From assembly GCA_008632985.1 (NCBI GenBank), contig QPGO01000058.1:62001-126000 (forward strand): a stretch of DNA of 64,000 nucleotides, given 5' to 3'. The position numbers were made by a program, and so were the translations under genes. This document shows positions 35,029 through 64,000 of the stretch, in pieces. This DNA is from Psammoneis japonica. Lineage: Eukaryota. Numbering within the stretch: position 1 is the first letter of the stretch; each line of letters opens with the position of its first letter. The notes beneath the pieces are model-generated. The model searched no databases and was not told where the DNA came from. It saw nothing but the letters and a program-made list of their open reading frames with translations.

Positions 35029-35535
35029 TGTAAATCAGACAATGTTGACAGGGCCTTCATCAAGACTCATGCTCGTTGCCCTTGTCTTGTGGATGAGAAG
35101 GGAAAAAAGAACAACACACAAAAAATGCCGGGAAATTGGCAAACATTACATTGTCTTCCAGATTGGGATGATTCTTGTGGGTGTGACGTGTCTGCATTTT
35201 GATTGTTCATCTGGCATCCACAATGAACATTGCACTTTTTATTTGCTGTCAAAATGCAGGATGTCATCTCTGTTGAAACGCAATGACAGCCATGTCAAAA
35301 AGCAAGTTGGGCTGTTTGTTGTTGCACACAAATGTGTTTTCAAATTTCAATGTTGCTGACAACAATTTGTGCAATGTCACAGAGAAAAATGGAGTGCCTG
35401 GCTGTCTCAACACGACCCAAACGATGGCTGCACTGTCGAACAGTGCCACTCCTCTCATTGTTGCCGTGAAAAGATCAAGATGTCGTCTCCAGCACAACCG
35501 GCAAAAAGAGAAAGAAAAATGAGACTGTTGAGCCA

Positions 35536-36777: not shown

Positions 36778-37701
36778 CCCAACCGATGAAATGCTTTTTT
36801 TGTTTAAAATGATGTTTACGAAAATTAACAAACCAAGGATTGTGTGGAAATGCAGTCGCGCATTGGCACATGGCAACAAGGTGGAGGCAGACACAGCGAT
36901 GTGGATGTGGTGAAAAACAGCACACATGATTCTTGATGAGTTGTTGCAACATTGGCACAGCAAACTTGTGACCAGAGGTTGGCCTTTCATCACATGACAA
37001 TGATGTTTTGCAACATTTTGACAAATTGTCATCATGCAAATCTACACATTTTTAACATTTCGTGCACTCTGATGTTCTTGACGTGGTGTCAGAATTTTGC
37101 TGAGGAAGTTTGCTGAGGATGCTGCTTTGCTGACACAGGGACTGTGGCAAAGGGCAGGAACACATGCTTCCAAGGCTCACAGTCAGCATCCAGCCTCTGC
37201 ACAAGCTCTTTGTACATCTGGGAGCAACAGGATGATGGTGACACGTAGTCCATCAACAAGCAAACGCACCGGCCTCGAGCTACGTACGACGTACGAACAG
37301 CACTAGTACTGAGACTCACGTAGCCTTCTACAGTCATATTTTTTGTCACATTCTGGCCTCTCGCTCGTCATTCCGCGCTTTTGGAGAGACAGGAGCGACA
37401 GACGGCAGATTTGGAGGCCGCAGCGCAAGTAAATTTCGGAAAGGTTGTTGTGTCCGTTCGTTTGATGGATGAGGATGTTAGGGTTGTTTGACATCATCCT
37501 TTACGAACATGACGATGCGTGCCAATAAATGTTGCCGAACATTTATGGTGTTGTTTTTATGTTCGGTTCGCATCTTGAATCTCCTACGAAAACAGACTTC
37601 CTTTGACACCCCCAGGCTTCTCGCTTCGCCTCGAGAGCAGCTGTGATCACAAATCACAAATACGATTGATTGAGAACACTAACAACAACGCTAACAACAA
37701 A

Positions 37702-43962: not shown

Positions 43963-44020
43963 ATGGCCTTCATCTTGGTTTCAATGGCTGTTGTTGCTCC
44001 TGTTGTTCTGACTCAGTCTG

Positions 44021-44089
<69 letters not shown>

Positions 44090-45642
44090 CTTCTCTTCTC
44101 CTCAAAAATGTGATCAGAGAGTCATTGTTCAGTGAGGGAGACACACCTGCCCCCAGTGCAGTTGTTGCAGTGGACTTGTTTTTCCCATGAACTCTCCCAC
44201 CCATGGACCAAGCCTTTTGGAGTTAACACCAAAGAAATGATGCCTGAATTCTCACCCACTTCAGCATCAATTCTTCCACCATTGGCACTGACTTTGTCCC
44301 CATTGGCTGCTTCCACAAGCTCCCCCTCAACACCTCAAACTGCCACACTCCCAACAACTCCAGTGCTGACCACATTTTTGGCAACAACCTTGTCTCCTTC
44401 AGCTTCTCCAATGCCACCATCATCCTCCACACTGCTTCCAACTCTTGCACAAGCAACTTTGTTTCCTGTGGATTCTCCTTTGGTCATGACCATCATGTCA
44501 CCAACTGCACCTCCCCTTTTGATGCCTTGGAGACTTCAAGCAAGAATGCTGCCAAACAACATTGCATCATGTGATCACTTTTCAGTCCGAGTGTGATGGT
44601 CAGTGGAAACGCAACTGTGGTGGGTTCTCCTGCTGCTGCTGATGAGGATGGTGACAGAAGTGGCACTGCCTGTGTTCATTTGTGGAAGTGTGCATGTTTT
44701 TGTCCAGACAAGTGTCACACAGAGCCAACAGGGCAAACTGGTTGGCAGTGTGACCTGGCATTGTCACATGACTGCTCATCCTTCAACACAGCTGTCAGCA
44801 GCAACACGGTGCTCATTTCCTGTTCTTCTGATGATGGCCATGGCAAAAGCAGTGGTGGTGCTTCTGTCTTTGTTTGGTCTGGCTCAGCCTGGAGTCAACA
44901 AGCAAAATCACAGCCAATGATGCCATTGCCGGAGCAAAGTTCAGTTTTGACATTTCAGCCAGCAGCAACACTGCAGTTGTGGGTGCTCCACATTTCATGA
45001 CAAGGGTCAGGCACATGTTTGCACCAAGACAGGCTCAATGTGGAGCCAGCAGACCAAGTTGACAGCCAGTGGAACCATGAATCAAGTTTGCTCCTTTGGC
45101 TGCAGTGTTGGCATCAGTGGGGTGTGGTTGTTGTTGGGGCTCCTGCTGGCAGATTGCTGGCTTGCATTTTTAGGTTCACAAGCGGGGAATGGATTCAACA
45201 AGCATGTGGCCACAATCCAGAATGGGTGGATTTAGCTTGAGTGTGTCCATCAGTGAATACAGTGCCATTGTTGGTGCTCCACATGAGGACTCAAACCATT
45301 GAAGGGCCTTCATTCATGTCAGCAATGATGGGGGATTTTGGAGAATCAAAAAGCAACTTGCAGATTTGTCTTGTTGGGATGAGCATTGTGGTGACTGTGT
45401 TGACATCTCTGATGATGTGGCTGCAGTTGGCACATGTGAAAAAGATGTGGGCTCAAACAGTCCACAGGCTCAAGGGTGCCACAGTGGCACTGGCTTTGTT
45501 TGCAACAAATTTGCAGAACCAGTTGTTGCATGAAGAGCAAGGGGGCGGTCAGAGATGCAGAGCAGATTCTCAGTGTTGCAGTGGAAGGTGTCCTTTTGTT
45601 CTTTGTGTTTCAAGTGCATGTGAACAACAGCTGATGCCATGA
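43963..45642 (+). pseudogene. Degenerate secreted FG-GAP-repeat (beta-propeller) protein with Pro/Thr/Ser-rich stalk
   Basis: Signal-like start and P/T/S-rich segment. Fragments in shifting frames: VSGNATVVGSP, GKSSGGASVFVWSGSAWSQQAK, ITANDAIAGAKFSFDISASSNTAVVGAP, WSQQTKLTAS...FGCSVGISG. Confidence 0.7.
44021..44088. repeat. (AAC)n microsatellite, about 22 units
   Basis: Uninterrupted caacaacaa run. Confidence 0.95.
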
Positions 45643-46279
45643 AGCAACTGAAGAAGGCAGAAAGCTCTTGGGTGCATGCCCCTCAGCAAGAAATCTGCCA
45701 AGTGCTGCCAAATGACTTCATCCACACTTTTGAAATGTGGCAAATGGCAGTGTTCTTCTGACAAGCCATGCCATCAGCCCAAGTGACTGGCAAACAGACT
45801 TCTTGCAATGATGCTGACAATGCTGTCAACAACACAGGTGGTTGATTTGCCATTGACGGCACAAAACATGACAGCCTGACAGAACTTCCAATTTTGTCAT
45901 CAGAGCACGCAACATGGTGATCATCACACATCTTTTCATTGTGATTTTTGTTCCTTTCACAGACAATTTTTTTATGGTTTCAAACCTCATCAGTTGTGTG
46001 GCTGGCAATGACATGTCAACTGTGACAGATTAACATTTTTGTGCTGTGGGATCAGACCCCCCCTCCCTGTGAGAAAAAATGTTTCACCATGAAACAGGGA
46101 CACGTTTTCCCTGTGAGAGTGCCCACCCTCTATCCCTGCAAAACCTGTAAATTAAAATCATTTGCATTGCACCATGAACACTCCATTTTGTTGTTTACAT
46201 TTAAATTAAATGACGCCGATGGAGACAACACCCCAGAGTCTGCAGCAGTTGCAGCTCACTTTCTTCAAGTGCCACTGCT

Positions 46280-47400
46280 TGCAGCCACCTTGTTCATTGC
46301 CAAAAAAGTGCAGAATGCGTTGTGAGAGTACAATGTGGATGAACTGACACCACCAACAGGAACAGCAACATAGACTCACCGGTGCATCCGGCACCGCCGA
46401 TTCTGGAGCAGGTGAGTTTGTGGCAGCTGCTGCAGTTCTCTTTCTTGAAGAGCCACTGCCAGCACTGGCAGCCACCTTGTTCATTGTTGAACGGTGTAGA
46501 AAACGTTGTGAGAGTGCAACAAAGATGAGCCAACCACAGCCAATGGAGACGTCAATGCACAGACTTGCCTGTGTGTCCAGCGCCGCTGATTCCGGACCAG
46601 GTGAAGTGACACTGCTCTGATCCACCTTGTTCATTGCAAAGAAGTGTAAAATGCTTTGTGAGAGTGTGTAGGACAACAACAGCAACCAATTGAAACCGCA
46701 ACATGGACTTGCTGGTGCATCCACCGTGGCCGATTCAGTCGCTTCTGCCGCCGGTTCCCGACCCCGCGAAGCCGATTCAGGACCATGTGAAGCAACATTG
46801 CTCTGATCCACCTCATTCAGTGCAAAGAAATGCAAGGTGCTTTGTGAGAGTGCACGGGACAACAACAGCAACCAATTGAAACCTCAACGCAGACTCACAG
46901 GTGCACCCGCCGCCGCCGCCGATTCGGGAGCTTCTGCTGCCGGTTCCCGACCCATCGACATGGAATTGGCAGCTGCTGCGGTTGTTGCAGTCGACCCCCC
47001 CCCTGCTGCTCTTGACTGCAAACAGCGGAGAGACTTGGGAAGCCTTTAAAAATGAGCCCAATGACTCAGGCAACCTCCAATGGGTTGCCTCCCCACTCTC
47101 TGCCTCTCAGTCTTTCTGGATCTGGACACAGAAATTGGAGAAGACGGATGCAACGTAAGTGAACACATCAAAAACAAATGAAGCTCTTTTTGTGCATGCC
47201 TTTTTTGAAGAGTGTCACACATGGTAAAGAACTTTTCACATGAGTGATTCTGAGAGCTGCAGGAACAAGCACCGCCTGCAGTCTTTCTGGGTCTGGACAC
47301 AGAAATTGGAGAAGACGGATGTGTTGTTGGCGAATGCATCAAAAACCAATGAACCTCTTTTTGCACATGCCTTGTTTGGACAGTGTAATTTATGGCAACT
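46280..47400 (-). repeat. Tandemly repeated modules resembling exon+intron units
   Basis: ccacctYRttcaKtg...tgtgagagt recurs at ~46286, ~46473, ~46622 and ~46808, with agactcac (GTGAGTCT donor on minus) between units. A second unit cagtctttctggRtctggacacagaaattggagaagacggatg occurs at ~47108 and ~47279. Confidence 0.7.
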
Positions 47401-49693
47401 TGTGATGATTCTGGATGCAAAACTCTGACGTGCGCGATTATGACAATGCTGTAGAAAAGCAAGTTTGTGACGTGCGTGCACACAACACACAACAACACGC
47501 CAGCAGCTCAGCATTCTGGACGCGGCAGATTCGTGACAGCACACTCGCGATCCCAAAATTCAAGCTGCGCCTGAACAAAACCCCATCTTGACCAACCAGA
47601 AGGATGGCAGGTATCACCACATGTTGAGCTGCTGTCATCGGCCAATGGGGTGAAGTCTTTCACCACCATGGCTGGTTGTCGATTTGCAGATTTGCGACCA
47701 CACGTAGGATCCACGTGAATCACAACAGCACGCGCTCTCGTTTTTCAAACTTTGGGGAGAGGGTGCACTGTTATGAAATGTGTAGAAAATTGTGCATGTA
47801 AAACACATTCTGAAAACGCCGTAGACCAACGGGCTGTGCAAAGTGAAGAAAAATGAAGGTGGGTCACGTGTGTGCGTGAAGTGCTGCAGACTGCACACGT
47901 GCAAAGACACACACACGTGAGTGAGGAGGACAAAGTTAAAACCAAGTTCAAATTGATTACGATCAAAAGGAAACCAAACCATGCACAACAAAAAACAGAT
48001 TTTGACCCTAATTAAATTAAACATTGCATGCATTTGATTGAAGCTTGTGCAAGAAAAGTTAATGAGACATCAGATGAAATGCAAAAAACAGCTTCATTTG
48101 ACAATGCACACTCAAAATTTTACAAAGGAAAGTGGAAACCACTACATTGCCACCTCTGATGGTTAAGATTGCAGCATCCATTAAAAAGGCAGCCTGTTGG
48201 CACTTGTGGATTCCCCAAACTGCCTTGAATCTGTCAAGTTGCACGCAAAGCATGACAACCATGGCAACTTCAGACAATCCAGGTGAGTGGCTGGCGCACC
48301 ATGTGCTCTTGTGAGCTGTGTTCACCTGTCTCTGATGATTGACATCATGTGAGCTTGGACTCATGTTGGAGGCAAAATGTGTTTCAGAGAAAGAACGATG
48401 TGCATGTTGACTTTCATCCTCCAAATGCATCCATGCTCATGCTCTGCTGCTTTGTTTTCTGTCTTTCTTGTGGAGCACATCCAGGCAAGAAACTGGACAT
48501 GAAGCTTGAGATGCAAAATGAAAAAGGTCAATGTGGCCACAAAAAGGCAAGGAGTTCTGAGAACATGCTGCTTTCTGCCATCATGCTGCAAGCCAGAAAT
48601 GACACTGACCACTGGATTTTTGACTCATGCTCTGACTTGTGCAAGTTTGTTGCTGACCCAAGAAGTGCTGGGAAGAATTTTCAATGGTGCCCAATGGGAG
48701 CATGGCATCAACAAGCCCTCTGCTGTCTTTTTGGGTTAGAAGCCCTCCAGATGTCTTTGAGTCAATGTCAACTCCATCGTGCAAATCACACCATCATAAT
48801 TCAACCCTCTCCCCAAGATTCTTGGGATCTCCAGCACAAGCAATTTCATGAATGCTTCAAGCCCATGATCCATTTCATGCTGCTGGGTCAGCTGTAAATT
48901 TTTGCATCACCAGAACCAATGAGACAGCACTTGGCTGCTTCCATCAGCACAATCACTTTGGGGTGATTGTGCTTGGCTGCTGCTGCTGCACTTTGTTTGT
49001 TGTGAGGGGCACAAGGGCAGTGAGAAGCCATGAGTCCAGCAAACAAACAAACAGAAAGGCACTGCACCCCCCTTTGCACAACAATTGCATGCAGCCTTGA
49101 GCCAAAGCCATGAAGCAAGTCATCAACGAATGCCTCGACACTGTTGCCAGCATGCATGCTCTGTGGTTGAGCAGCAAGGAGGATGGGGTCAAGTGTTTCT
49201 GGAGCAAAACGTGTGCATGCTTGGCAGGTCCAGGACGGCAGCAGCAGTGGCAGCAGCAGTGCCAGCAGCATTGGTTGAGGCTGGCAAAAGCACTTTGTCA
49301 GCAGCTTGCAAGACTTCTGAGGGTGCTGTGGCTCATGGCACCAGTTGAGGATGTGTGGACATGCTCCAGCTCTAGGTGGGACCTTGCACTGCTGCACTGT
49401 GACATCAACAGTTTTTTGGATCGCATCGCATGTCGCGCACGCACATTTCTGCGTGTCATGTTCTACGAAATTGTTTCATGCTCCCTGTTTTGCGAAGCCA
49501 AAGGCTTTCTATTTTCAACATTTGTGAGAACAAAAATGTGCTGGGCACATTCTTTAATGTCTGTAGAACACACCTGGGCAAACTGTCAATGATGCACTGC
49601 AAGCATGAAGGAGGAGATGCATTCGTAAAATTGCCTCTTTTTCTGTTGGCGATCATTTGCATTTTCATGCAGCACAAATTTGCTGCGGAGCTC

Positions 49694-51903
49694 TCATGCA
49701 GAATTCTGCGGGCCCTTGCCATGCACTCGAGCATGAGCAAATGGGAGAGATCCATGGAAACCTGTTGCCGTTTCATCGCATGCTGCACATGTCCAATCAA
49801 TGAGAACAAACACCTCATCGTTCCTGTCAAAAACAACATTTTCAACTCGCACGTCAAGGTGAACAACATTTCGGGCATGAGCATGACTCAGTCCGGTTGC
49901 AATGTCCATCCACATGCTTTGTGCCACTTCCTTCTTTGGTTTCAAATTGACCTCCACAAGTGGAGTGCCTTTGCAAGAGATTGGGATGGCGGGAACGGCT
50001 GCAGCCGTCTGGCGGATTTCACAAACAAGCTTTCCCATGCCACAGAGATGAGAGATGTTGTTGCACTTCACTCCAGCATTCAACGCACGCAGTGCGCGCA
50101 TTTCCCATGTAATGTGTCGGGTCTCCCCAGCTCGAGATGCTTTGATGCACTGGTTTTCGTCATTGGAGACCCTGCACACAGTGCCATGAGCCCCGGCACT
50201 GACCACTGCTCCCGCAGACAGATTTTTGCCAAATTTTAAAGTCGGGGACAATGACCATGGATGGAAGGAAGCAGTTTGATTCTTTCATTTCTGATTGTCA
50301 AAAAAGGATGTGCCGAGACTTTCCTCTGATGCATGCAACAACTTCCAAAGTTGCTCCAACCCTTCCGGGACAGCAGACTTCAATGAACCTGGCGGAAAGA
50401 GCTTTTTCTCGAGATGTTCTCCAGACTTGTCGTTTGTCACCAACTTCTTGAAAATGTCTTGATCGACCAGTGGGAACATCTCTGCATGGCTTGTCTTCAC
50501 CTCCACACTGAGAGTCCCCATGTTGACAAGCTGGAGCCGCAATGCTTGCATGCAGACCGGTGTGAGGATTGGCCCCATTGCACTTCCGTCCACGCCTGCA
50601 TTCCCCAACTCAAAGGCAATGAGCAGCCATTTCGCACCATGCCCCACCTGCTGTTTCATGTTCTCCTCGTGCATGCTCTTTGCACTCCGTTGTTTGCTGG
50701 AGACATTCTTGACTTCCGCAGCCCCGGCCATTGTCTCCATTCGCAGCATTTTCGGTGCGCATTGGCATGACTTGCCAATGTCAAAGTCCAAAGAGCGCCC
50801 CATGCCAACAGCATGAGTTCGAGCAAATTTGCTTTCCCAGTGAATGTCTTCTCGTCCACTTGTGCCCATGTGCGACAACACTTGCATCAAGCTGCACATG
50901 AAGCCACCTCATCTGGGAAAACATGGACACCACATCACCTTCACTCTTCTCTTCATTTCCCCAGGACCAAATTGATTGGCAGTTTGTTGCATGCCAGAAA
51001 TGCATGACTCTTTGTCCTCAGCACTCCAGCTCCACTGCAATGGCTCCTTGAGCTCAGCTGCTCCAATCAAGTTGTTCCAAAACCTGGCGAAACGCTCTAA
51101 ATCCGTTCTCACATCCTCACACCCCACTGTCCACCAAGGGTTGACTGAGGGGCTGTTGACTGCATCAACGAACTTCTTCTCTTGCGTGCAAGGGCTGGGA
51201 ATCTTGACCCCATTCATCAATTCCTGAACTTGGCTCAAGTGAAACGATTCATCATCAGAGGTCACGCAACTCACTGACGAAAGACCGCTTGCCGTCTTCG
51301 TCTCGTTTTTGTTGGAAAACAGACACACAGATTCTTCATTTTGTTTCGCACCTCTTCCAGTCTTCCTGCTGACTCTTGCATTGGTTCTTCAATGCAACAA
51401 TTTAGACCAAATCCTGTGCTGCGGATGACGTTTTTTGCTTCATGACAAGACTCAGCATTGCTTTCCAACAAACACTTCAATGTGTCGTTCATTTCTGACC
51501 AGTCTGGCTCCAAGTCATGATTGCGCATGGTTTCATCTTGCGCAAGGCTGTTCACAAGCCCTGAAACCAGTTGCTTGCTGCTCTCGGGGCCACTGTTCGT
51601 GTCGCGCGACAGTTCATGGAGGACCTTTTTCGCATCTTTCACTTTTTCAAACCGCTCTTTCCAGCATTGGACAGTGCCTTTTGGAGCCTTGGGAAAGAGA
51701 GAAATGAACAAATCCAAAGCTTTGTCATCATCGCATGTGTGTTCATTCTCTGTAACTCCGTCGGCGGCGGTGGGCTTGGTCACGACAGCATGCTGACCTG
51801 CGCGATTGGTGCTCTCCCAAGCCCGTCGCTGTCTTTTCCCAATTCGAAAGGCAATTGAATCATCGTTGCTTTCGAGATCCCGTTTCGTGTCCGAAGTCGC
51901 CAT
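49694..51903 (-). pseudogene. Degenerate protein kinase-domain gene
   Basis: C-terminal kinase fold: AGAHGTVC (Gly loop), IKAS, LSHAHARNVVHLDVRVENVV, VLIDW and GSLPFA. Upstream fragments back to ATG 51903 are broken by stops and frameshifts. Confidence 0.75.
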
Positions 51904-52445
51904 GGCGTATGAGTTGTACGGTGTCGACCGACCTGGGTTGACGATGCTGATGGTGCAATGGGCTATCGTAGCCAGCGATGTTGATGTTTGATGTTGTTTG
52001 TTGTTTTTGCCTGTGTTCACTTCTGTTTTTTTTTTTTTTTAGTTTTCACCGTACCGTGGGGCGCTATTACCGTACAGTATGAAATCAGCAGTAGTCCCAT
52101 GTGCTTTCCAAGTTGAAGTTTGTTAGTAGATACCTAGTAGGCAGGCTAGTACCGTAGGCGAGGTTATGTTCAATTATGTTCTCTGCAAAAAAACTTATTA
52201 CCTTCCTCCTTGAGGTTTTAGACTAGATTCTAGATTTGTGATCTGCTGCAAGACAAGTCGGGAGGGAGTGGAGAGTGGTCGACAACACTGCATGTAGTCT
52301 AATCCCAAACTACGGTAGTCTGAAAACCACTCTTTATTTCAATTGTGTAACTGCATACGAGTACAAGTACTGTACCGTACGCTGTTGAGAGTGGAGTGGT
52401 GTTGCGTCTCTCAGCCACCGAATTCTCATTGCTACCCATCAACCA

Positions 52446-54068
52446 CTATCGCCGACGGATTCGCCTCGCAAGACGCTTTCCAATCCAATCTCGTTTACTA
52501 TGGGGCAAAGCCAATGAAGCATTACTTGTAGGCTCAACTTCATTGATAGGATCCTCAACTGTTTTCACCTCTTCTGGTTTTAAATCGACTACCATGACGC
52601 TAGAAGAGTCTGCATCCACGGTAGGTGCCAATTCTTGAGGCCTTCTGTTCGAGTACTTGCCTGACATGCGCCCTTCCAATTCTTCTTCTAATCCCTCCAC
52701 CATATTCGCTAGCACAATCACGACATTGTAAGCTCCCCTGCCTGAAGGTTGCCGCAATTCATTCACGATACCCAATGTAAGAGCTATACCGAAAACAATA
52801 AAGGAAAGATACCAGGATTGGACCTTTAGAATACCCAATCCACCAATAGTTTGCACACCAGCACCCAAAACGGGGAATGTACAGAGCACAACAGCAGCCA
52901 AACTATACAAAAGTATCATATGTATTGGAGGCAACTTCTTCTGCAAGGCACCCAATCTTCGGGCACGAGCTTGTCTCAGAGCTCGCACGGTTTTGTAAAT
53001 GATGCTTGGTTCTCCAACCGAGGTTAGAAACATGACGCGCTCAAAAGGATCGTCCACCGGACGAGCTGATAACAGCACAGCTGGTTCGGTTGCGGTTTGA
53101 AGCAAATCTTCACGGACGTAAACATCAATGCACTCCAAGATGGATTGATACATGGCCTTGCGTCCTTGACAAACCAGTGCAACTTGCTCCAGTAATGACT
53201 TGGCCACAGTCACCTCGTCAAAGAGTGCATAGTATATTTCTTCTTGTTGTTGATACATGAAATAATAAGTTTGTCCTTAACAAGTGAGAGATGGTGTTGA
53301 GTTAGTGACACAATAGAAGTAATAGTCAATAGCACTTCTACTTTGCATGGTGTAAAGGGATAGAAAACAGTGCTTCTTACCCACAAGAATGGAAAAGGTG
53401 AGTCCGCATGTTGTAAGAATGTTCTGAATATACTGCGAGTTGTCTTGGGCAATCACACCAAAGGCCTTATAGTCGTCAATCATTGCCGCCAGTGTAAGAG
53501 ACAAAGCTGGATAGACAAATGCCGCAGCGGCTCCAAAGAGTAAGGCGGGCATCCCGACACGAAGCAACGTGACAATCTGAACATAATTCTTCAATTCACG
53601 AGGATCGTCCTTGAAGTCGGCCGACACAAAGTTCTTAGCAGCTACTTCCCACACGGAAACACTCCCTCCCATATCAAGATTCTCATAAAGGCTTTCATGG
53701 TCTCTGACAGATGCAAGAAGAGAAGTCGCACCCGTGAGTCGGATGGGATATCTATGCAGGTGCGACGTAGTAGCACCGAAACAACTGAGTTTTGCGCCCA
53801 TACTATGCAGGGGTGATGACGATCTAGTAGTTGCTTGAGTGGGAAAAGAGAAACCCTTGTTTGCCATACAGGCCAAAATTATCATTGACATGAAGAATGT
53901 TGTGTATGAGCAACATGGAGGGCGGTTGCGTTTTCGCGTCATGTTGCTAATGTCGTCGGTAATCATCATCGTGGGTCGGTCAGAGAAGTGAAAAAGAGAT
54001 GGATGATGGATGCGGGTGACGGTTGATGGACAGGACAGAACCGAAGCCATTCTTTCAACAACGGCCAT
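52446..54068 (-). CDS. Integral membrane protein, possibly DUF4239-like and plastid-targeted; intron 53380-53276
   Basis: Splicing gives CGLTFSILVGQTYYFMYQQQEEIYYALFDEV. About four TM segments. The true start may be 53942 or later, ahead of a signal-peptide-like FFMSMIILACMANKGFSF. Confidence 0.75.
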
Positions 54069-54109
54069 GTCAAAGCAGTGGCTGTGCTCATGTCTTTGCT
54101 TGGTCTAGC

Positions 54110-54600
54110 TCAACCTGGAGTCGAGAATGACACAAGAGAAGCAAAAAAAAAACTTGCAGCCGACAGTGTGCCCTGTTGCCAAAAAAGAAAACTCACCAGC
54201 TTCCCCCCCCCCCCACCCAGCGCTTGCTTTTGAAGCACAGCAAACGACTGTCTTCTTCCAAAAAGCTCAGACATTGACCCCAATAACTGGCAGCAGTTGC
54301 TCCAAAAGGGTGCCAGCAACACCACAATGAATGCTGCTGTTGCCCCAGCTTGATTTGCCTCTCTGCACGAGCAAAACAGCACTCCAGCCTGTCGCTCTTG
54401 GGCTTTCCGAGAGCTGCCTCAAATGGATGATTTTTTTTGTCATCAAGGATTGTTCGCACATTTTGGATCTGTGGCCAACCTGGTCCTGCAAGCCAAGCCA
54501 CTGCGAAAAGGCAAGGAAAGCTGGAAGCCAAGCAACGCAAGCGAATGTGAGGGCGGAGATTTTGGATCTTGAGAAAGCACACCAAACTGTGACTGATCAG
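54110..54600. other. Short TpA-depleted island between divergent genes
   Basis: Only one TpA seen between 54110 and 54600. Confidence 0.6.
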
Positions 54601-54783
54601 TGCTACGTCATTGTATGAGACGATCTTATCGTGGGTTTTACACACGTAAGATTTATACCAGTGGCTACGCAAAGAGGCAGCTGCTTGGCATCTCGCTGAA
54701 AAAAACACAAGGTCTGTGTCATCGCAACATCAAAGCCGTCGTGGTCTCTTCTAAAGAACATCATCTCGAGTAGAACAGACATC

Positions 54784-56099: not shown

Positions 56100-57555
56100 G
56101 TTTATTCAAAGTACTTTGCACAATAACAGCAACGCAAAATGCCGTCAACAACAACAACGTGCCGCGAGCGGTCGAAGCGTGGAGAATGCCGCAGAAATTG
56201 CTGTTGTCTGTTGTGTACGTTTGTCGTTTAGATTTTCGTATGCGAAGATAGACTGCATGCTACTGAAACGCAAAATTTGCGAATCGCAAATTAATTTATA
56301 AAAACAAATAGCTCGAATTTTTTCGCGATGAAAGCACGTGCGAGGTCTCTGAGTGCTTCATTTTTCGCTTCAAATGAGCAAATGCTACTGTTTCGACAAC
56401 CGAAGGTCTGTAAGTGACATGAAATAACAAACCAATCAGATTATTATCATTATGAAGAGCTATATGACGTTTTGTTTGTGAGGAAAGGCGGTGTAATCAT
56501 CCAAAAAGGTCATTTTTTGTTGAAATCTTGCGATGCGTCGGCATGAGTCTGCACCTTGAATTGCACCAGAGGATGTTGGCCGCGTCGCAAAGACGATCTT
56601 GGAGGGTGACAAGGGTCGTTTCTCGACTCGCCGCGCGATGATTTCGATTGTGCGGGGATTCGGAATTTGTCGCAAATTTTGCGATGTCGCAAATTTTTCG
56701 ATTCGGTAGCATGGAATTTTTGGCGCGAAGTTTTAGTAACTTCCAAACTTGTTGTGCTCTTCGTCTTGTCTTCGTCGTAATCTTCCTTTCAGATGAAGAC
56801 CTACCGCATACATAGTGTTAATTAAGCACGGTTGACTTAGCTGCTTCGTTGCCGGACGCCGACTGGGTGCCAGGTGCACTTCCTTGGTGTGGCATGAACT
56901 AGTCTTCCGTAGTGCAGACAAGAGAAATCGATACAATCATTCACGATCCGCGGGCATGACATTACGGAACCTACAAAAAAGGCTCTTCAAAGACCACCTC
57001 GACAACTCAACCGAAGAGTGGACGATACTCGGTCTGTGATGAATCCAGCATCCAACTGAATATGGAGAGGTGGCATCGTCGTCTGAGTCGGAATATGCAT
57101 GCAGGAGGAAGAAAAACAAGCTACGACAACTGCATCAGAGCCGCGAGTAAGCGCTGCCTGCTCTCCTTGGTGTTCATAATGTCATCATGAAGTAAATTGC
57201 ATTGTCAAGATCGCACACGTTTTTGAACTCCATTTACGTAGTGTATGGAAACTCCAATGATATCCATGCTACGCTATTGTAGGTTGAGGTGTCGATTACA
57301 GTATTGGGGACTACTGGATTCAGCCTATAAATGTAGAGTGACGTACAAGACGAACCGGCAGAATCGACCGACCGATCTTTCTTAAGTTGAGGGAGTCAAA
57401 AAGCTTCAGAAGGCTGGTATGGGTGACCAGAGCTATGAGCGAAACCGTTTTAGCAGAACAATGCGATCAGGACGAAGAGGTTTTTTGTCGTGGAGTATTC
57501 ATTTACGAGAAGTGAGGTATACAGCCTAAATACAGATATCGAAATAGTCAAATTT

Positions 57556-58098
57556 CTACACCACACCCGTTCCCGACTGTTTCGTCAATTCCATATCTGT
57601 AGGATGCCCGTATCGTTCTTCGATTCTCTCCTGACGAGAATAGGCTGCGGAAACTCGCAAAGCAATGCCCAGTACGACGAAAATTGCAAGAATACCGCCT
57701 AGTATGACATGGACAATATACTTTTGGGCAATTTCCGTACATACAAGATCATCACACTGCGGGTGCGCCGCATCCCATTCACAGCGAACCCATTCCTCCA
57801 TCTCGTCAATGCAAGCTCCGCAAGATCCTTTGCAACGATTCATCGACCGGCAAAGTTCGTGTTCTAGAACCACGCACTCGCCCCTGGATTCCACATTGGA
57901 TTCAAGCTCCTTCAGAAGACAAGAAGTGCAATCCTCGCTTCCAGTGACACCAAAATCCGTCAACAGGCACGTCACAAGAGAATCCATGTTGGATTCGCAT
58001 GGATCATAATCCCACACTTGTTGCGCCGCTGAATCTCTCGTCCCAACGGCAAGCAACAGCGAGACGACTTGAACGACAGAGCAGACCGCAGGCTCCAT
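57556..58098 (-). CDS. Small type I membrane protein with Cys-rich ectodomain
   Basis: 180 aa: signal peptide, multiple Cys, single TM (IVHVILGGILAIFVVLGIAL), short tail. Degenerate duplicate at 61.0-62.7 kb. Confidence 0.75.
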   Translation of the reverse strand: MEPAVCSVVQVVSLLLAVGTRDSAAQQVWDYDPCESNMDSLVTCLLTDFGVTGSEDCTSCLLKELESNVESRGECVVLEHELCRSMNRCKGSCGACIDEMEEWVRCEWDAAHPQCDDLVCTEIAQKYIVHVILGGILAIFVVLGIALRVSAAYSRQERIEERYGHPTDMELTKQSGTGVV

Positions 58099-58248
58099 AG
58101 TTGTTCTGAGATACAGTCTTTTGCGAAGAGTGTTTATCGTGGAGAAGCAAGAGAGATGGAGATTTTAGTTCCCCCACGATCCATGACTCAAAATGAACGC
58201 GGTTGAATTTTTGTTCCTCCAAAAAAATCTTGTGTGGGCTATTGCTTG

Positions 58249-60126
58249 CTACCGGAGGACTCAACCGGTCCCGGCGTCCGTGACTGAAATTTCACCACGG
58301 TGAAGCACGAGAGTCGAATAATTCGATTGGACTCAACCGGTCCCGATTTTGCATTGAAAACGGCATGTTGTACTTTGATGCATCTCGCCATGGCATACAT
58401 CGTTGGGTCGATGTATCTTTCATGTGGGATCTTTTTCTATCGTTGTTATAAAGAGGTTGATGCATTGGTTTGGTTTCCTGGGGGGCTTTGGTGGCGACAC
58501 ACGGTACAAACGGTTGCGTGCCTCGACTCGTGACTCGATTGCTGCACGGTACGGGTGACATCTGAATGGTCGACAACGTTGCCGTGGTAAGTTCTTTCTG
58601 TGTTTTCTCATTTTATACCGTTTATCTACTCACTAAAGATGTTGTTTGTGCTTTGTTACAGCTTCATAGGAGGATATATCGTCTCGTACGGTCGATTATT
58701 GCATCTGCAATATTGGCATCTTTTTCACGTCGTCGTCATCACAAAAGCGCATCCGTTTGGGAGCCTTGTGCTTCATCCCACTCCACATCTTTTGGTACAT
58801 CTATTTTTACTATTTATTTGGACTTGTGACAAGCTTGATATGTTTTTGAAGGTCTTGGTCGGCTCGTAATCACAGCATGTCGTTTTTCGGCGATAACAAT
58901 TTCTTGAAAGTGCATGCCGTGGGAACAAAACGATGCGATGGAGTCTCGGGGATACTCACGACATTGGCATTTGTCAGACAGCCTTTCCATAGTCCAAAGA
59001 AGGTAACCCTGTGAGCATGTTGTGATTGATTGAGTTTTGGACTCGTTTTGACGAAACTTGCATACCTCACGAGCCTTTTTTGGTGCGTCTCGATCATGCG
59101 CACAGGTGTCTGGTCCTTTTTGACCCTTTCCACCTACCCTTCAACCGCATTATCATCATTATCTAAGACACAATATTGTCCACGTTATTTTGGGAGATCT
59201 TTGTGGCGTAACTACGACTCTAGGCTTTGCAATGGGTAAAATGGGAAGGTTGAGGCTTGTGTTGGCGGGTTCATCGCCTCCTCTTGAATGCGCGGATGCC
59301 ACGAACCGCTGATGTTACTTGGGGGCATAAAAATTAGTAAGGCGACTCAGCTCTACATTTAAAAGGTGCCCTAGTGAGTATACTGTGACATGTAACCCCA
59401 ATGGATTATTATTGTGTACGTTGTTCCACTCATATTTTCATTTTGCCTGTCATTTTCCAGTGTGACTGTCGTTGACCGTTAAAGCTTGCAGTGGCATTTC
59501 CAGGCCCATGTTCTACATGACAGATATCTTTTGATACTCTTTGCTCATATGGGGAAATCAGATCCTGGAGCACTCAGTTCCTAGTCGGGTGTAGAGAGGT
59601 ACAAGTGCAATGGATGAAATTTGGACCAGGGCACAGATGGAGTTGGGGCGAACGTGCTGTTTCTTCTCGCTGGTAGAGTTAGTTAGTGTGGGTGTGCGTG
59701 CGGATGGCCTCTCTATTTAGGGCTACTACTCTCTAGAGTGCTACAGTGCCACTCTAGAGTAGAACTTGGCGCAAAAGGTAAGAGATCAATTTTTTTGTGA
59801 TTTTCGACTCGTCGCGGCATCTTCGGCGTTGTCCGTTGACGACGATAAGCAATCCATTGAAATGACTTATAGACTTATAGCATTTTGTTGTTCTTTAGAG
59901 ATATGATTGTATAGCTTCTAGTATTCTAGCTTTCTTCAAGGGTAGGATTGTATCGCATGTCCTTCGGGAAGAAGTCGCTTTGCGTTATCATTGCGTTGTG
60001 GCGGCACTCTCAAACTCATCCATCGCGGCGGCTTGTGCGTAGGGCTACGTACTAATTCTAGCGAGCGTCCGTCAGTCAGCCGGCGGGACCGGTTGAGGCA
60101 GCGGGACCGGTTGAGTCCGCCGGTAG
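58249..60126. mobile_element. Non-autonomous TIR DNA element (1.88 kb) with 4-bp TSD CTTG
   Basis: The left end CTACCGGAGGACTCAACCGGTCCCG matches the reverse complement of the right end CTACCGGCGGACTCAACCGGTCCCG at 24 of 25 positions. CTTG at 58245-58248 and 60127-60130. Subterminal copies of the motif at 58329-58345 and 60083-60097. Absent from the duplicate site at ~62830. Confidence 0.85.
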
Positions 60127-60130
60127 CTTG

Positions 60131-60340
60131 AGAGTTGTTGCTGTTGTGTACGTTTGTCGTTTAGATTTTTGTTTTGGTCTCCATCCATCACTCGCGCACG
60201 TCAAAACCAAATTCGACAAAATCAACAACGTTGATAAAATCGAAAAATGACGCCAACCGCCGAGGCCGAGACCGCGACCATGGAGAGGTTTCCCACTGCA
60301 CTGGCCTTGACAGGTGTCGTGGAATTTACCTCCTTACACA
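60131..60340 (+). pseudogene. Truncated duplicate of the MFS transporter promoter and first codons
   Basis: Aligns to 62837-63145, e.g. accatggagaggtttcccactgcactggccttgacaggtgtcgtgga vs accatggagaagtttcttattgcactggccttgacgggtgtcgtgga. Confidence 0.8.
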
Positions 60341-60614
60341 TGAGCAAAACTGGTCAAGTTTCATACAAGGGATGAATGAATCTTTGAACAGGAGGATTGC
60401 ACCCAATCTTCTGGCTAGAATCACGTCCAGCGCCAGCCGCGCTCTTTGCGCTGAAGGCATCGGATGGCGTGTTCGGTGATCTGCCATTCAGACAGACAGT
60501 GTCTTCTTTCAGACGCTTGTTGTGCAGATGGATGAAAAGTTCAGCAATGAAAACATCCAAAACAGACCACCTTTAGAAACAATCTGTGGCAAATGGAAAC
60601 GGCCTTCAAAATTG

Positions 60615-62836
60615 CATCTCATGTTCGCCACATCACAAAGCAAATTGCATCGTCAAGATCGTGCACATTTTTGAATTCCATTTGCATGGTCCATGGAAAC
60701 TCCAATGCTGTCCATGCTGCGCCATTGCAGGTTGAGGCGTCAATCACAGCATTGGGGAACACTGGATTCAGCCCACATGCAGAGTCGCACGCAAGATGGA
60801 CCGGGAGATTCGACCTCCCAATCTTTCTTAAAAGTTGAGGGAATCAAAAAGCTTCAGAAGGATGGCATGGGTGACAAGACCTGCAAGCAAAACCACCCCA
60901 GCAGAACAATGCAATCAGGGCTGAGAGGTTTGTTGTGTCGCGGAGCATTTGTTTGCACAAAGTGAGGCACACAACACAAGTGCAGCTGTCGAGTTGGTGG
61001 TCAACAAGTTTCCACACCACACCCCTTCCTGGCTGTTTCTGCAATTCCACATCTGCATTTTGAGTGGGCACCCACATTGTTGTTGGATTTTTTCCTGATG
61101 CTTGCAGGCCACAGCACCCCTGATGCCTGCAGCAGGCTGCAGAAACTCAACAAGCGATGATGCCCAGCACAAAGAGACTTGCAAGAATGTCGCCCCTGGA
61201 ACAAAAGGGCCAAAATGCTTTTGTGCAATTTCCACACATGCAAGGTCATCACACTGCAGGTGTGCTGCATCCCACAAATGGTGGCAAACCCACTCCTCCA
61301 CATGTCTGTGTGCAAGTTCTGCAAGATCCTTTGCAGCGATCCATCAGCAGGCAAACTTTGTGTTCTAGAACCACACACCTGCACATGGATTCCAAATTGG
61401 ACTCAAGCTCCATCAGAAGACAAGAAGTGCAACCCTTGCTTCCAGTGACAGAGGGTGGATGGCTGGTTGGATTTAGCAAAATCACCTGACTTTGGCAAAT
61501 TGAGAATCCCAATGTCCGGGTTGCCTGGGGCGCGTTGGGCAGCCACCATCTCCTGGTTGCTTGAGGTTCACCCAGTGCATTGCATGCGAAGCTGCGCGAC
61601 ATCACGGCACATGATGTGGCATTTTGAAGTTGCACTGTGGCACATGATGTGGCATTTTGAAGTTGCATCTCATGCAACACTCAGAACAACAAAAAACACC
61701 GCATCTCCCACCGCACCATGGGACTTGATCATTTGTAGATTGATGGCCGCAATGTCGATCAAGATGAGAGTGCAGTCACACCACTGTAAAATGGTGCTTG
61801 TTTTGATGGTTGCGCTGGATTTCTTGGCACTGTTGACTGTCATGCCACATTTGGACATGCCAACAAGCAGTGTGTTTGCTGACTTTTTTCTGCAGGGCTC
61901 TCACGACCGCTGTGTCAACAAGTCTGCAATCACTGGGTTGATTTCTGCTGCAGATGCAATCATTGGTGTCCAAGGAAACACTGGCATCTAAGGAGTGCAC
62001 ACGCATGGATGGCATCATTTTGTTTCCACCAGTTTCCCATGACAGATGCAGAAAATGATGCTCTGATTTCCAATGTCGACAATGCATCGTGTGGGTTACA
62101 GAAAAGAAACAATGGAGTGATTTTTTTCAAAGAGAGAAGAAGAGCTGGTTTGTGCAGCAAACGCTGTCGTCTGTCATTGGACGCTGCAAACAATTGTTGG
62201 CACCTTGTTTGGAACATTTTTTGCTTCCCTGTCAAAGCAACAGCAGCAATCACAACACCTTGCTCATTTTTGCATCATGGTGTCAATGCAGCTTGGCTGT
62301 GTGATGCAGCACGTGGTGTGCTTTGTTGCGGGAGAGTGCGTGAAACCAAAAGTGCAACGGACGGGAGCTCCAAACCATCGGCAATCGGATCTGGAACCAG
62401 CTCGTCAAGCTCGTTCCAAATCCATGCTCAAATGGATCGGAGCGGCTGTCCTTCATTGCATCTGCACGTCATCCGCACAGCAGCTGATTTCACCACCAGT
62501 GGACACTCTAACTGGCCAACCACCTGACACCAAAATCGGTCAACAGGCATGTCACAAGAGAGCCCAAGTTGGACTCACATGGGTCATTGTCCCACAATTG
62601 TTGCACCACTGAATCTCTCATCCCCCAACAGTGAGACGACTTGAACAAGACAGAGAAGAGACTGCAGACTTCGCAGCTGTTCTGGGGTGCAATCTTTTTC
62701 GAGGAGGAGCGCTCATCTCATGAAGAAGCAAGAGAGATTGGAAGATGAAGAGTTTTCAGCAGTTGCCCCGTGATCATCCATGACTCAAAAGCGGTCACTG
62801 TGTTCCCGTTCCTCCATCCAAAAGCAATCTTGCTGT
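60615..62836 (-). pseudogene. Hypermutated duplicate of 57170-58240 (Cys-rich membrane protein gene and flanks)
   Basis: Collinear alignment by eye on both sides of the 61451-62524 insertion. Differences are dominated by TA>TG/CA and CG>TG/CA. Confidence 0.9.
61451..62524. mobile_element. ~1.07-kb insertion with imperfect TIRs and TGACA target duplication
   Basis: The intact copy reads ccagTGACAccaaaatc. Here TGACA flanks both ends (61446-61450, 62525-62529). Ends GGTGGATGGCTGGTTGGA vs reverse complement GGTGGTTGGCCAGTTAGA. Confidence 0.75.
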
Positions 62837-63083
62837 AGAGTTGTTGTAGTTGTGTACGTTTGTCGTTTGGATTTTCGTGTTGGGTCTCGATCATCCATCA
62901 CTCGCGCAAAGGTGACATCAGCAAAACGTCAAAACCAAATTTGACAAAATCAAAAAATTGAAAAATCGAAAAATGCCGCCGACGCGCGCCGACGCCAAAA
63001 CAATAACGCCTTCATTTTTTTTTCACGACGCAATAGTAAACGTTGTGGCGAGCAATACCCTTTTCCCTTCTCTGTTGGCCACC

Positions 63084-64000
63084 ATGGAGAAGTTTCTTAT
63101 TGCACTGGCCTTGACGGGTGTCGTGGATGCTATTTCCTACATGGTGGTTGCGCCAAGCATTGTCTTTTATGTGCTACAAGTCGGCGGCACCAAGGAGCAG
63201 TACGGCCTTGTTTTGAGTGCCTTTTCCTTTGCCTCCTTTTGTGCCAAGCCTTTTTTGGGAGCCTTTTCCGACAATATCGGCTTTCGATTTCCGTATATAT
63301 CGAGTCTCGCCATTTCCTGTACAGGAGGATTCTTGTATTTGATTGCGTCGCGGTTTGAGAGCGTCCGATTGATTCTCGCCGGACGCATCTTGGGAGGTGT
63401 CGGTGCCGCCAATTCGGCGCTGGCGTACGCGTACATTTCCAAAATGGTTCCCAATGAAAAGCAGACACGCATCAACTCGTTGTTGAGTATGGTGCGAATC
63501 TTTGGAATGGCGGCGGGGCCCGGAATGAATATCTTTTTGGCAAAGATTGACACTGACATTTTTGGGAGCTTTCATTTGGATAGTCTCAACTCGGTGGGAT
63601 TGGTTCTCATGCTGTCGAATCTGCTCGCAATCACTTGTATTTTCTTTTTGTTGGAAGAACCACCGTCCAACAATGGTACAAGTGACAGTGACAATGACGA
63701 CAAGGACGTTGTGGGCACGCTTGAAAAGGACGACAAGTTTGCCGTCTTGAAGGCGGTGCTTACCGCTGGGATTTTGGTCCCCATGCTGGCCATTTTTACG
63801 TTCAATGCGAACTTCCAATTGTACGTACTTGATGATGTGATTGCTTTGTTTATATCGTGTTTCTCACACGCATATGCTCACGGCCTTGTGTGTTGTTTGT
63901 AGAATTGAAACCGGTTTTGCTCCCGCCGCAAACCACGCTCTTGGTTGGGGCCCAATTCAAACTTCTGCGGTCCTTGGATCCATATCCATTATTATTTGCT
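63084..64000 (+). CDS. Major facilitator superfamily transporter (3' end outside window); intron 63821-63902
   Basis: Multiple TM helices, GAFSDNIGFR (MFS motif A-like) and GRILGGVG. Splicing continues NFQL|IETGFAPAANHALGWGP. Confidence 0.9.

Follow-up and report, generated by a model that had tools for sequence, protein, structure and literature searches.

The window, by which we mean the whole stretch of 64,000 nucleotides analysed, has two copies of a small gene near its right end. Copy 1 is intact and lies on the reverse strand at 57183..58193 (BLAST and MAFFT; 3' flank included). Its TpA content is normal and it is found in a normal segment, with TpA o/e 0.63 by two-state segmentation. 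The open frame, 57559–58098, has about 180 aa: its N-terminus is hydrophobic, then follows a part rich in Cys and, close to the C-terminus, a further hydrophobic stretch. A search for homologues of this protein found none. Copy 2 is on the same strand, broken in two parts by BLAST and MAFFT. The 3' part (60631..61450) is a mutated paralogue of 57183–57949, with 73.6% over 825 columns in BLAST; the 5' part (62525..62790) corresponds to 57945–58193, with 73.7% over 274 columns. They are split by an insertion of 1,074 b (61451..62524, delimited by BLAST), which is TpA-purged as well. We looked for coding content in this insertion and recognised none. Its summed word depth is about 900 in the public run X1, which hints at a member of a repeat family.

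Other features surround the pair. Between copy 1 and a duplicated promoter there is an element at 58248..60127 with terminal inverted repeats of 26 nt (arms 58248–58273 and 60102–60127, 96% complementary). It is not TpA-purged (TpA o/e 0.67–0.92); its summed word depth is high in both X1 and X2, of which X2 also has GT..AG joints. The duplicated promoter, at 60131..60323 on the forward strand, was found by BLAST and includes the first codons of an MFS transporter. Its partner is 62837–63127 (76.5% over 162 columns, 88% over 50 columns) and its composition is mostly normal. The transporter gene itself, of which the window has the promoter and the 5' part, is intact at 62837..64000 on the forward strand (MFS_1, E 2e-24) and has normal TpA. 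The purged DNA that contains copy 2 ends sharply at this gene: the last purged stretch ends at 62835, and there are three TpA in the next 20 b.

Two-state segmentation of the window gives six TpA-poor blocks, which cover 25,013 of the 64,000 b and have TpA o/e 0.08, against 0.58 outside, while base frequencies are identical in the blocks and in the remainder. They are 19791..21365 (TpA o/e 0.06, CpG o/e 0.31), 22028..22811 (0.05 and 0.28), 27294..37212 (9.9 kb; 0.09 and 0.47), 42235..51907 (9.7 kb; 0.09 and 0.37), the small 53961..54603 (TpA o/e 0.05) and 60417..62835, which includes copy 2. This last block has only 9 TpA in 2,419 b, with TpA o/e 0.06, CpG o/e 0.45 and CA/TG o/e 1.8/1.7. The six blocks range from 0.05 to 0.09 in TpA o/e and the seven normal segments from 0.47 to 0.75. 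The blocks contain 140 TpA, where about 1,000 are predicted from the TpA density elsewhere in the window: a depletion far beyond chance. They have thus lost about 90% of their TpA, the broken copy at 60.6–62.8 kb included. CA/TG o/e is 1.70 in the blocks, the reverse of the TpA excess which fungal RIP produces by C>T at CpA/TpG; the first-pass annotation of this DNA had proposed a polarity opposite to that of RIP, and this is supported. CpG is also reduced, with o/e 0.41 compared with 0.97 elsewhere, in a different manner: per 500 b its o/e spans 0.0–1.0, with patches visible inside 27294..37212, whereas the loss of TpA is uniform. Seven 500-b windows have TpA o/e of at most 0.25 and yet CpG o/e of at least 0.75.

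The blocks contain a transposase-like relic, kinase and FG-GAP-like pseudogenes, a duplicated host gene and candidate terminal repeats. A viral family or hallmark was sought in 115 frames (35, plus the 80 listed out of a further 89) and none was found. We also applied the cut-offs for clusters used in a preprint on Bigelowiella natans: 3 or more 1-kb windows in a row, having a Rho of at most 0.43 for TpA and of at least 1.52 for CpA+TpG (Mettrop et al., bioRxiv 10.64898/2026.01.13.699255). In our case 20 of the 64 1-kb windows fall within these values, with runs of 3 (27–30 kb) and 9 (42–51 kb).

The gene pair was the starting point of the first-pass annotation, which described the alignment of an intact with a mutated copy as direct evidence for a RIP-like process. 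The alignment is sound: the five examples of TpA change that it quoted are all found as given when the pair is aligned with MAFFT over the coordinates of that annotation (1,064 aligned positions). The 45 aligned TpA of copy 1 read CA (23), TG (14), TA (1) or something else (7: TC 2, TT 2, AA 2, CG 1) in copy 2. It was also correct that hardly any TpA survives in 57181–57620, where about 30 sites and a single surviving TTAA had been counted. All 29 aligned TpA are altered there, 28 to CA or TG and one to CG; the TTAA at 57384 of copy 1 sits at an alignment gap, and copy 2 has a TTAA at 60829. Decay of CpG, noted as well, is present in 37 of 59 sites (CA 24, TG 13; CG is kept in 10 and 12 have other fates). 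Single-base differences from copy 1 to copy 2 are A>G 48, T>C 56, G>A 38 and C>T 27, with 82 transversions. When the two strands are folded together, the share of adenines with A>G is 40/87 after T, 18/140 after A, 13/139 after C and 19/153 after G; TpA exceeds the other contexts several-fold in rate, a comparison which the annotation had put forward as a check. The CA and TG outcomes are interleaved along the pair (runs test, P 0.24), which indicates that both strands are changed.

Nevertheless, 'direct evidence' is an overstatement, since an alignment of two copies is unpolarised. The polarity of the pair would follow by analogy with other purged blocks and from the intactness of copy 1. The pair is old: its 1,064 positions include 82 transversions, transitions outnumber transversions by a factor of only about 2 overall, and by itself it does not separate a burst from a slow bias. 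The term 'RIP-like' is adequate for a regional hypermutation. It is not adequate in the sense of repeat induction, of which there is no sign, because only one copy is mutated and the mutated domain extends past the duplicated part.

The sites which survive depend on the neighbouring bases. Survival of TpA in purged versus normal DNA, in which true escapees are combined with TpA re-made from CA or TG, is 0.62 for TTAA, 0.32 for CTAA/TTAG, 0.26 for GTAA/TTAC, 0.21 for CTAG and 0.12 for CTAC/GTAG. It is lowest for ATAA/TTAT (0.10), ATAG/CTAT (0.06), ATAC/GTAT (0.03), GTAC (0.02) and ATAT (0). A multiplicative model applied to each strand agrees with all ten classes. Counted as hits over exposure, the gene pair gives 22/30 for TAC, 8/20 for TAG, 7/29 for TAT and 2/9 for TAA; TAC exceeds TAT by 11 to 1 where the strands compete. 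VAY has 0.17 and VAR 0.05–0.07. The target preference is TAY > TAG > TAA. TTAA is the commonest survivor because the frequency of hits falls from TAC and TAT through TAG to TAA.

The direction of change was established by outgroups in two blocks other than that of the flagged pair. In the block at 27–37 kb there is a transposase-like relic on the reverse strand (31637..33544), with an open frame of 636 codons and 15 TpA left. The neighbour frame 33716–34057, on the same strand, has a weak match to Plavaka (E 1.7e-4), under the cut-off. Tyr makes up 0.3% of the relic, against 2.5–3.2% in its homologues. Seven columns are all Tyr in at least two homologues: the window has C in 4 of them, H in 2, F in 1 and Y in none. 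Conserved columns of other residues are retained completely (H 12/12, C 5/5, F 19/19, W 9/9). When the relic is compared with 49 environmental loci and three proteins, Tyr is retained in 0/5 columns; one column has Y in 46 of 47 relatives and H in the window. Low TpA is not a trait of this family, as none of the 49 relatives is TpA-poor (TpA o/e 0.40–0.79). Eleven relatives with CpG o/e of at most 0.14 have TpA o/e 0.42–0.53, which supports the earlier claim that loss of TpA is distinct from CpG decay. The second case is a protein-kinase relic in the block at 42–52 kb (49697..50284, reverse strand; Pkinase 33.4 bits, cut-off 31.7), with 0% Tyr. None of its three Tyr columns is retained (the window has C, H and C there), in contrast to the columns of H (5/5), C (2/2) and W (2/2), which all are. 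With these two outgroup comparisons and the six blocks, the proposal of a region-targeted change of TpA to TpG/CpA is supported. The frame of 636 codons, still open with 15 TpA remaining (chance expectation 1.5e-5), is an indirect hint that bears on the speed of mutation.

Other explanations can be weighed with these data. The opposite polarity would require that the CA/TG-rich state is ancestral and that copy 1 and the normal genes have gained TpA through C>T at CpA, as in RIP. The unpolarised alignment of the two copies allows it, but CA>CG and TG>CG would then be needed at 37 sites, and the conserved columns with Tyr in the outgroups and His or Cys in the window (Tyr kept in 0/7, 0/5 and 0/3), together with the absence of TpA-poor relatives, refute it for the two blocks at 27–37 and 42–52 kb. 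We find it hardly credible for the window. An artefact of sequencing, base-calling or assembly at modified bases in silenced DNA should also be considered: in nanopore data modified bases can give systematic purine/purine and pyrimidine/pyrimidine miscalls, and no record names the platform behind the assembly or X1. However, the purged sequence is also present in X1. Contigs of this run match the region of the purged block at 44104–45939 (1,836 b, 4 differences), 48114–49387 (1,274 b, 1 difference) and 49639–53273 (3,635 b, 11 differences), at a word depth of about 63–69. An artefact is therefore unlikely, the purged DNA being found nearly letter for letter, although X1 is not fully independent because it may be the sample behind the assembly of the window. 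Over 6.7 kb of purged DNA these Logan contigs, with word depth around 60, show 16 differences from the window, an agreement for which accurate reads are needed; in copy 2 there are also indels, an insertion of 1 kb and 82 transversions, about 90% of the sites are completely changed and the edges of the blocks are sharp. Taken together, we consider an artefact very improbable. We give still less credit to RNA hyperediting of ADAR type fixed by reverse transcription, or to foreign DNA which arrived free of TpA. The 5' U preference of ADAR is mentioned in the Discussion of the preprint (bioRxiv 10.64898/2026.01.13.699255), and the blocks do contain relics of mobile elements. Yet copy 2 is in place beside the duplicated promoter and is no retro-copy, CA and TG are interleaved where one strand per event would be expected, and AA is not raised, though it is also favoured by enzymes of ADAR type. 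As for foreign DNA, a working genome cannot be without Tyr, and here conserved Tyr has been replaced.

Two further readings accept a real change in DNA and differ in its chemistry. The loss of TpA may be a side effect of how methylated chromatin is repaired: where 5mC is deaminated, the resulting T:G mismatches would be processed in error-prone patches (Pol eta type), which mutate nearby A:T. It is true that the same blocks show both losses, and that gain and loss of GC balance nearly exactly. But the Pol eta hotspot is WA, which includes AA, and A>G after A is at the baseline. Furthermore CpG loss is patchy, with seven 500-b windows poor in TpA alone, eleven CpG-decayed relatives of the transposase relic have normal TpA, and the bursts of B. 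natans (230/231 AT>GC) came without C>T alongside, according to the preprint. We judge this reading quite improbable. A start on thymine has somewhat more in its favour, but is still unlikely. An oxidase of TET/JBP type would convert the T of R-T-A to 5-hydroxymethyl- or 5-formyluracil, which would pair with G and give T>C. In dinoflagellates 5-hydroxymethyluracil replaces T, with a preference for TpA and TpC; 5-formyluracil, for its part, can pair wrongly with G. The signature is strand-symmetric, so T>C at RTA is indistinguishable from A>G at TAY. On the other hand the window offers no evidence of a base or an enzyme of this sort, the preference for TAC is matched more specifically by the UAC which TadA-type deaminases prefer, and the authors of the preprint favour adenine deamination, as a hypothesis. 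The chemistry which we propose tentatively, at somewhat less than even odds, is that a TadA/ADAT-like deaminase turns adenine into inosine, which is then read as G.

Our preferred interpretation is a real mutator, targeted to certain regions at TpA, whose footprint is that of a DNA-level A-to-G process; we assign it a probability of about 0.78. Such a mutator would change the A of 5'-TA-3' to G on either strand, thus TpA to TpG or CpA. It would work in chromosomal domains with dead, duplicated or mobile DNA and spare the adjacent active genes; the TpA purge in the window would be its accumulated footprint, nearly complete. A second process, slower and patchier, would take CpG from the same blocks, most likely deamination of methylated cytosine. 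Genes would be killed by missense, because TA>TG/CA is unable to make stop codons: every Tyr codon would be turned into a codon for His or for Cys, with long spurious open frames as a remnant.

Several known systems can be compared with this process. Deamination of 5mC is alike in the change of CpG to TpG/CpA within the same blocks, and it dominates the listed differences between the window and X1 inside the purged block: of the 11 found there among 40 of 1,308 rows, 8 are CpG transitions and only 1 is TG/TA. It is ruled out as the whole signature, since it leaves TpA alone and CpG-poor relatives keep TpA o/e 0.42–0.53. Fungal RIP, which depends on a methyltransferase-like enzyme of RID/Dim-2 type and has premeiotic timing, also disables duplicated and mobile DNA permanently by regional transitions and reshapes its dinucleotide content. 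However, RIP makes TpA from CpA/TpG and creates stop codons, whereas the process in the window destroys TpA and cannot create them. Under RIP each copy of a repeat becomes mutated (PMC2621366), over the length that is duplicated; in the window copy 1 has escaped change, and the purged DNA at 60417–62835 takes in non-duplicated sequence and the insertion.

TadA and ADAT2 have the same A-to-I chemistry, read as G; TadA recognises UACG (PMC13170351), and the natural U-A-C(G) target parallels the requirement for TA and the preference for TAC in the window. In nature these enzymes work on loops of RNA. A deaminase gene behind the purge would be expected to have the HxE-PCxxC motif, and its product to act on TAY in DNA. 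Adenine deaminase activity on DNA is known in engineered base editors derived from TadA, and amphioxus ADAT2 is active on DNA according to the B. natans preprint.

The closest system is that of B. natans itself. The first-pass annotation knew of no described mechanism, but the same spectrum has been measured in mutation-accumulation lines of this alga: two silent regions of integrated viral DNA received 231 of the 302 new mutations, 230 of these 231 were AT>GC, all on TpA, and the rate was about 1000-fold over that of the genome remainder (bioRxiv 10.64898/2026.01.13.699255). In both cases A>G/T>C occurs at TpA only and gives TpG/CpA, the change is limited to particular regions with normally mutating DNA adjacent, and the long-term footprint consists of clusters poor in TpA and rich in CpA+TpG. 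By this analogy the two are probably the same kind of process. There are also differences. B. natans is a rhizarian, while the window appears to come from a bolidophyte-like stramenopile, as judged from one protein, whose best named match is Triparma verrucosa (76%). The targets are viral in B. natans; in the window they are transposase, kinase and FG-GAP-like relics and a duplicated host gene. The footprint is deeper here, with TpA o/e 0.05–0.09 against Rho 0.45 in the giant-virus region of B. natans. In the window CpG loss goes alongside and the preference TAY > TAG > TAA is seen; the preprint text does not discuss the former or mention the latter. New mutations were measured in B. natans, whereas the process in the window is known from its accumulated footprint alone. 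The signature of a natural A-to-G mutator of DNA has been reported once before, in this unrelated alga.

The observed/expected ratio (o/e) of TpA, taken per 500 b, is bimodal along the window: it is either about 0.4–0.9 or about 0.0–0.2, with few intermediate values. A two-state segmentation gives six purged blocks, in which TpA is almost wholly rewritten to TG/CA. They are found in positions 19791–21365, 22028–22811, 27294–37212, 42235–51907, 53961–54603 and 60417–62835, and sum to 25,013 of the 64,000 b. TpA o/e is 0.08 in purged DNA versus 0.58 in normal DNA, CpG o/e is 0.41 versus 0.97, and CA and TG o/e 1.70 versus 1.16. Base frequencies are equal within about 0.01 (purged/normal: A.256/.257, C.242/.230, G.239/.246, T.264/.266): the GC gained by TA>TG/CA is offset almost exactly by the GC lost by CG>TG/CA, a balance which may be either coincidence or coupling. 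Within the blocks the loss of CpG is patchy (o/e 0.0–1.0 per 500 b) and the loss of TpA is uniform, which indicates two processes, the TpA one being more complete. The edges are sharp: the last block stops at 62835 and there are three TpA in the next 20 b, in the promoter of a live MFS transporter gene. The block in 53961–54603 has just 643 b, flanked by two normal minus-strand frames; it could represent either a small insertion or the margin of a larger, old one.

The last block contains a broken paralogue (copy 2) of an intact small gene with normal TpA (copy 1). BLAST aligns 57183–57949 with 60631–61450 and 57945–58193 with 62525–62790 at about 73.6% identity; 60131–60323 also matches 62837–63127. 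Judged from these matches, the duplication at about 57–63 kb is tandem-like. Its unit comprises the minus-strand small gene, the promoter between the genes and the opening codons of the MFS transporter. The first unit has the open frame of copy 1 (57559–58098, minus strand) and an inserted element of 1.88 kb (58248–60127) with 26-nt terminal inverted repeats. In the second unit copy 2 is frameshifted and interrupted by a 1,074-b insertion, and the MFS gene is intact.

The alignment of both copies covers 1,064 positions. The 45 aligned TpA of copy 1 appear in copy 2 as CA (23), TG (14), TA (1) or other dinucleotides (7), the 59 aligned CpG as CG (10), CA (24), TG (13) or others (12). Read directly from the sequence, the copy-1 protein has four tyrosines, at which copy 2 has His, Cys, Cys and Asn. 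The mutated copy which the first-pass annotation had placed at 60615–62836 is thus borne out by BLAST and by the alignment, where its five examples of TpA change are all present. It had also claimed that the TpA of 57181–57620 are lost, and all 29 aligned ones have changed, with a TTAA surviving at 60829; its remark that CpG also becomes TpG/CpA applies to 37 of the 59 sites. This is the only informative pair among the 10 found by self-BLAST of the window, which gave no second normal/purged pair. The copy-1 protein has no homologue among 222 candidates, so that the pair has no outgroup.

The first-pass annotation had named the A>G rate at TpA against other contexts as a check. With the strands folded, A>G per adenine is 40/87 after T versus 18/140 after A, 13/139 after C and 19/153 after G; about 85% of the TpA sites are destroyed, because a single hit suffices for each. 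The base which follows also counts. Survival of TpA in purged versus normal DNA is 0.62 for TTAA, 0.32 for CTAA/TTAG, 0.26 for GTAA/TTAC, 0.21 for CTAG, 0.12 for CTAC/GTAG, 0.10 for ATAA/TTAT, 0.06 for ATAG/CTAT, 0.03 for ATAC/GTAT, 0.02 for GTAC and 0 for ATAT. All ten classes are fitted by a model in which the two strands escape independently, each with a factor set by the nucleotide 3' of its A (A 0.81, G 0.45, C 0.25, T 0.12). In the two gene copies the hits per exposure are 22/30 for TAC, 8/20 for TAG, 7/29 for TAT and 2/9 for TAA; when TAC and TAT face each other at one site, TAC is hit 11 times to 1. Without a 5' T, A>G is still 0.17 at VAY versus 0.05–0.07 at VAR. CA and TG outcomes are interleaved in copy 2, therefore both strands were hit, which fits a process at the DNA level. 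Runs tests detect no strand-coordinated runs in this copy (P 0.24 for TpA, 0.73 for CpG), a result which at saturation speaks neither for nor against processive single-strand events.

The outgroup check of polarity, also proposed in the first-pass annotation, was run on two other blocks. The block at 27–37 kb contains an open frame of 636 codons (31637–33544, minus strand), with a chance expectation of 1.5e-5 even in stop-poor DNA. It is a transposase-like relic with three protein homologues, at 61%, 42% and 39% identity, and 49 related environmental loci. Tyrosine is 0.3% of its residues versus 2.5–3.2% in the homologues. At the seven columns with Tyr in all of at least two homologues it has Cys (4), His (2) and Phe (1), never Tyr; other conserved residues are retained (His 12/12, Cys 5/5, Phe 19/19, Trp 9/9). 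Against all 52 relatives it keeps 0/5 Tyr columns, one of which has Tyr in 46/47 relatives and His in the window. In the block at 42–52 kb a kinase relic (Pkinase, 49697–50284), compared with the best 17 of its 162 matches, has Cys, His and Cys at the three Tyr columns and retains His 5/5, Cys 2/2 and Trp 2/2. A tyrosine codon TAY gives His when changed to CAY and Cys when changed to TGY. Conserved tyrosines read as His or Cys thus show, in both blocks, that TA is ancestral and the purged state derived.

Methylation decay as the sole cause of the TpA loss is rejected by comparison with the environmental relatives. In 11 of the 49 loci (L020, L023, L025, L027, L031, L034, L036, L043, L045, L046, L048) CpG has been lost (o/e 0.00–0.14) and TpA o/e is still 0.42–0.53; they show what methylation decay of the ordinary kind does in other hosts, and make a useful contrast. 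None of the 49 is TpA-poor (o/e 0.40–0.79), and by this comparison TpA poverty is no trait of the element family. An artefact is also unlikely: the purged sequence is real DNA. Contigs of X1, a public sequencing run, match purged DNA with four differences in 44104–45939 and one in 48114–49387, and with 11 over 49639–53273; they have a word depth of about 63–69 and come from one study with platform unrecorded, X1 being possibly the source of the assembly itself. Among 40 listed of the 1,308 rows of the comparison, 11 differences between the window and X1 lie in a purged block, eight of them CpG transitions and one TG/TA; they fit ongoing CpG decay where TpA is already spent, and are uninformative on present TpA activity.

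No RNA data set is listed for the window. In X2, another run, there are GT..AG joints and the cover sits on normal segments, with next to none over 44–52 kb and zero over 60.0–62.7 kb, although missing cover does not mean silence. The summed word depth of X1, which is not a copy number, is high in 45.3–48.7, 49.3–50.0, 56.0–56.7, 58.0–60.0 and 61.3–62.7 kb, which hints at repeats of both kinds, purged and unpurged.

The content of the blocks is varied. Among 35 frames of the purged blocks Pfam gave one match above the cut-off, Pkinase, together with weak FG-GAP_2 and DUF3043. Another 80 of 89 further frames, with the nine at 60551–62274 left out, gave four matches, all weak (Plavaka, FG-GAP_2, DUF2615, DUF6529). 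No viral family was found among these 35 and 80 frames, and neither the transposase-like relic nor any of its three homologues matches a Pfam family. The Plavaka-transposase match (E 1.7e-4, below the cut-off) is in 33716–34057, minus strand, next to the 636-codon frame. Candidate 23-nt inverted terminal repeats (29638–29660 and 37052–37074, 87% complementary, 7.4 kb apart) bracket this frame; taken together, these features could represent a Plavaka-like DNA transposon that has been purged. Kinase and FG-GAP-like relics, a duplicated host gene and tandem repeats of about 186–190 b, 77–85% alike (29163–29595 and 46242–46953), are also purged; the second tandem repeat coincides in part with a region where the summed depth of X1 is high.

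The name RIP-like, used in the first-pass annotation, holds only loosely for the process and does not seem to suit its trigger. One of the duplicated copies is mutated and the other is not, and the purged domain takes in the non-duplicated 60417–60630 and the insertion. The repeat-flanked element in 58248–60127 (arms 96% complementary, internal GT..AG joints in X2, summed word depth very high in both X1 and X2) has normal TpA and resembles a live DNA transposon, present in many copies, which escaped purging. For these reasons the trigger does not look like that of RIP. A domain-based trigger would fit better, for example silencing nucleated by an insertion and halted at an active promoter.

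An S28 peptidase (2575–4185) has Triparma verrucosa as best named match (76%), followed by Tetraparma gracilis (61%) and a Thalassiosira transcript (60%); oomycetes have 42–46% and no match exceeds 79%. The window is not from Bigelowiella natans. Its affinity would be with a bolidophyte-like stramenopile, a placement which is tentative since it is based on one protein. In 10773–13408 and 17763–19003 there are Toprim + AAA_25 (a Twinkle-like primase-helicase) and a family-A DNA polymerase split over two frames; these genes are probably nuclear and serve the replication of organelle DNA. In 14553–17887 there is a protein with at least six Helicase-associated (HA) domains, then a SAP + HA frame.

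The central proposal of the first-pass annotation, a region-targeted mutator from TpA to TpG/CpA, is supported by the six blocks, the outgroup polarity and the TpA-specific rate. A wider reading, to which we give a probability of about 0.3, is a genome defence common to Rhizaria and Stramenopiles (distant SAR lineages) and perhaps wider, based on a dedicated adenine deaminase of DNA which prefers T-A-C/T in a TadA-like manner. This defence would mark silenced or invading DNA and erase TpA to completion, beside cytosine methylation, killing genes by loss of tyrosine codons and not by stops. If true, it would be a natural A-to-G editor of double-stranded DNA, an ancient counterpart, of opposite polarity, of the RIP and APOBEC defences. 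We know of no natural enzyme established for motif-specific A-to-G change in chromosomal DNA; to our knowledge the sole tools for such change are laboratory-evolved base editors. The order TAY > TAG > TAA is a concrete biochemical prediction. Purged DNA has practically no TAA/TAG stops and no tyrosine codons, so that gene finders will predict long spurious genes and real relics will be missed in searches by homology; annotation would gain from a 'de-purging' step, comparable to deRIP for fungi.

The first-pass annotation knew of no described mechanism; for the phenomenon there is a precedent, the only description of the TpA signature which we found in the full-text literature. According to the text of this preprint, of the 302 new mutations in mutation-accumulation lines of the chlorarachniophyte B. 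natans, 231 lay in two regions of integrated viral DNA, 230 of the 231 being AT>GC, all at TpA, and the rate in these regions was about 6e-7; 124 clusters poor in TpA and rich in CpA+TpG are counted in the genome, and the authors propose an ADAT2-like adenine deaminase (bioRxiv 10.64898/2026.01.13.699255). The same text has no mention of wider context, CpG or diatoms; its Methods and supplements may hold context data. No paper combining TpA, CpA, TpG and diatom was found, and the terms TpA, dinucleotide, methylation and hypermutation are absent from the main text of the Parmales genome paper (PMC10328945). To this precedent the window adds another lineage, a distant one, together with purging that is almost complete, a preference for TAY, TpA loss decoupled from CpG decay, and a duplicated host gene among the targets. 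The footprint of the process caught in the act in B. natans is the same here, near completion, in an apparent diatom relative, therefore the process is no quirk of a single species. By comparing both lineages one could reduce the candidates for the enzyme, asking which deaminase, oxidase or reader genes are present in footprint genomes and absent from those without it. UACG, given as the recognition sequence of TadA (PMC13170351), agrees with the need for TA and the preference for TAC in the window, and may be taken as a lead. Fungal RIP has the opposite polarity, and the resemblance of the two processes is only loose.
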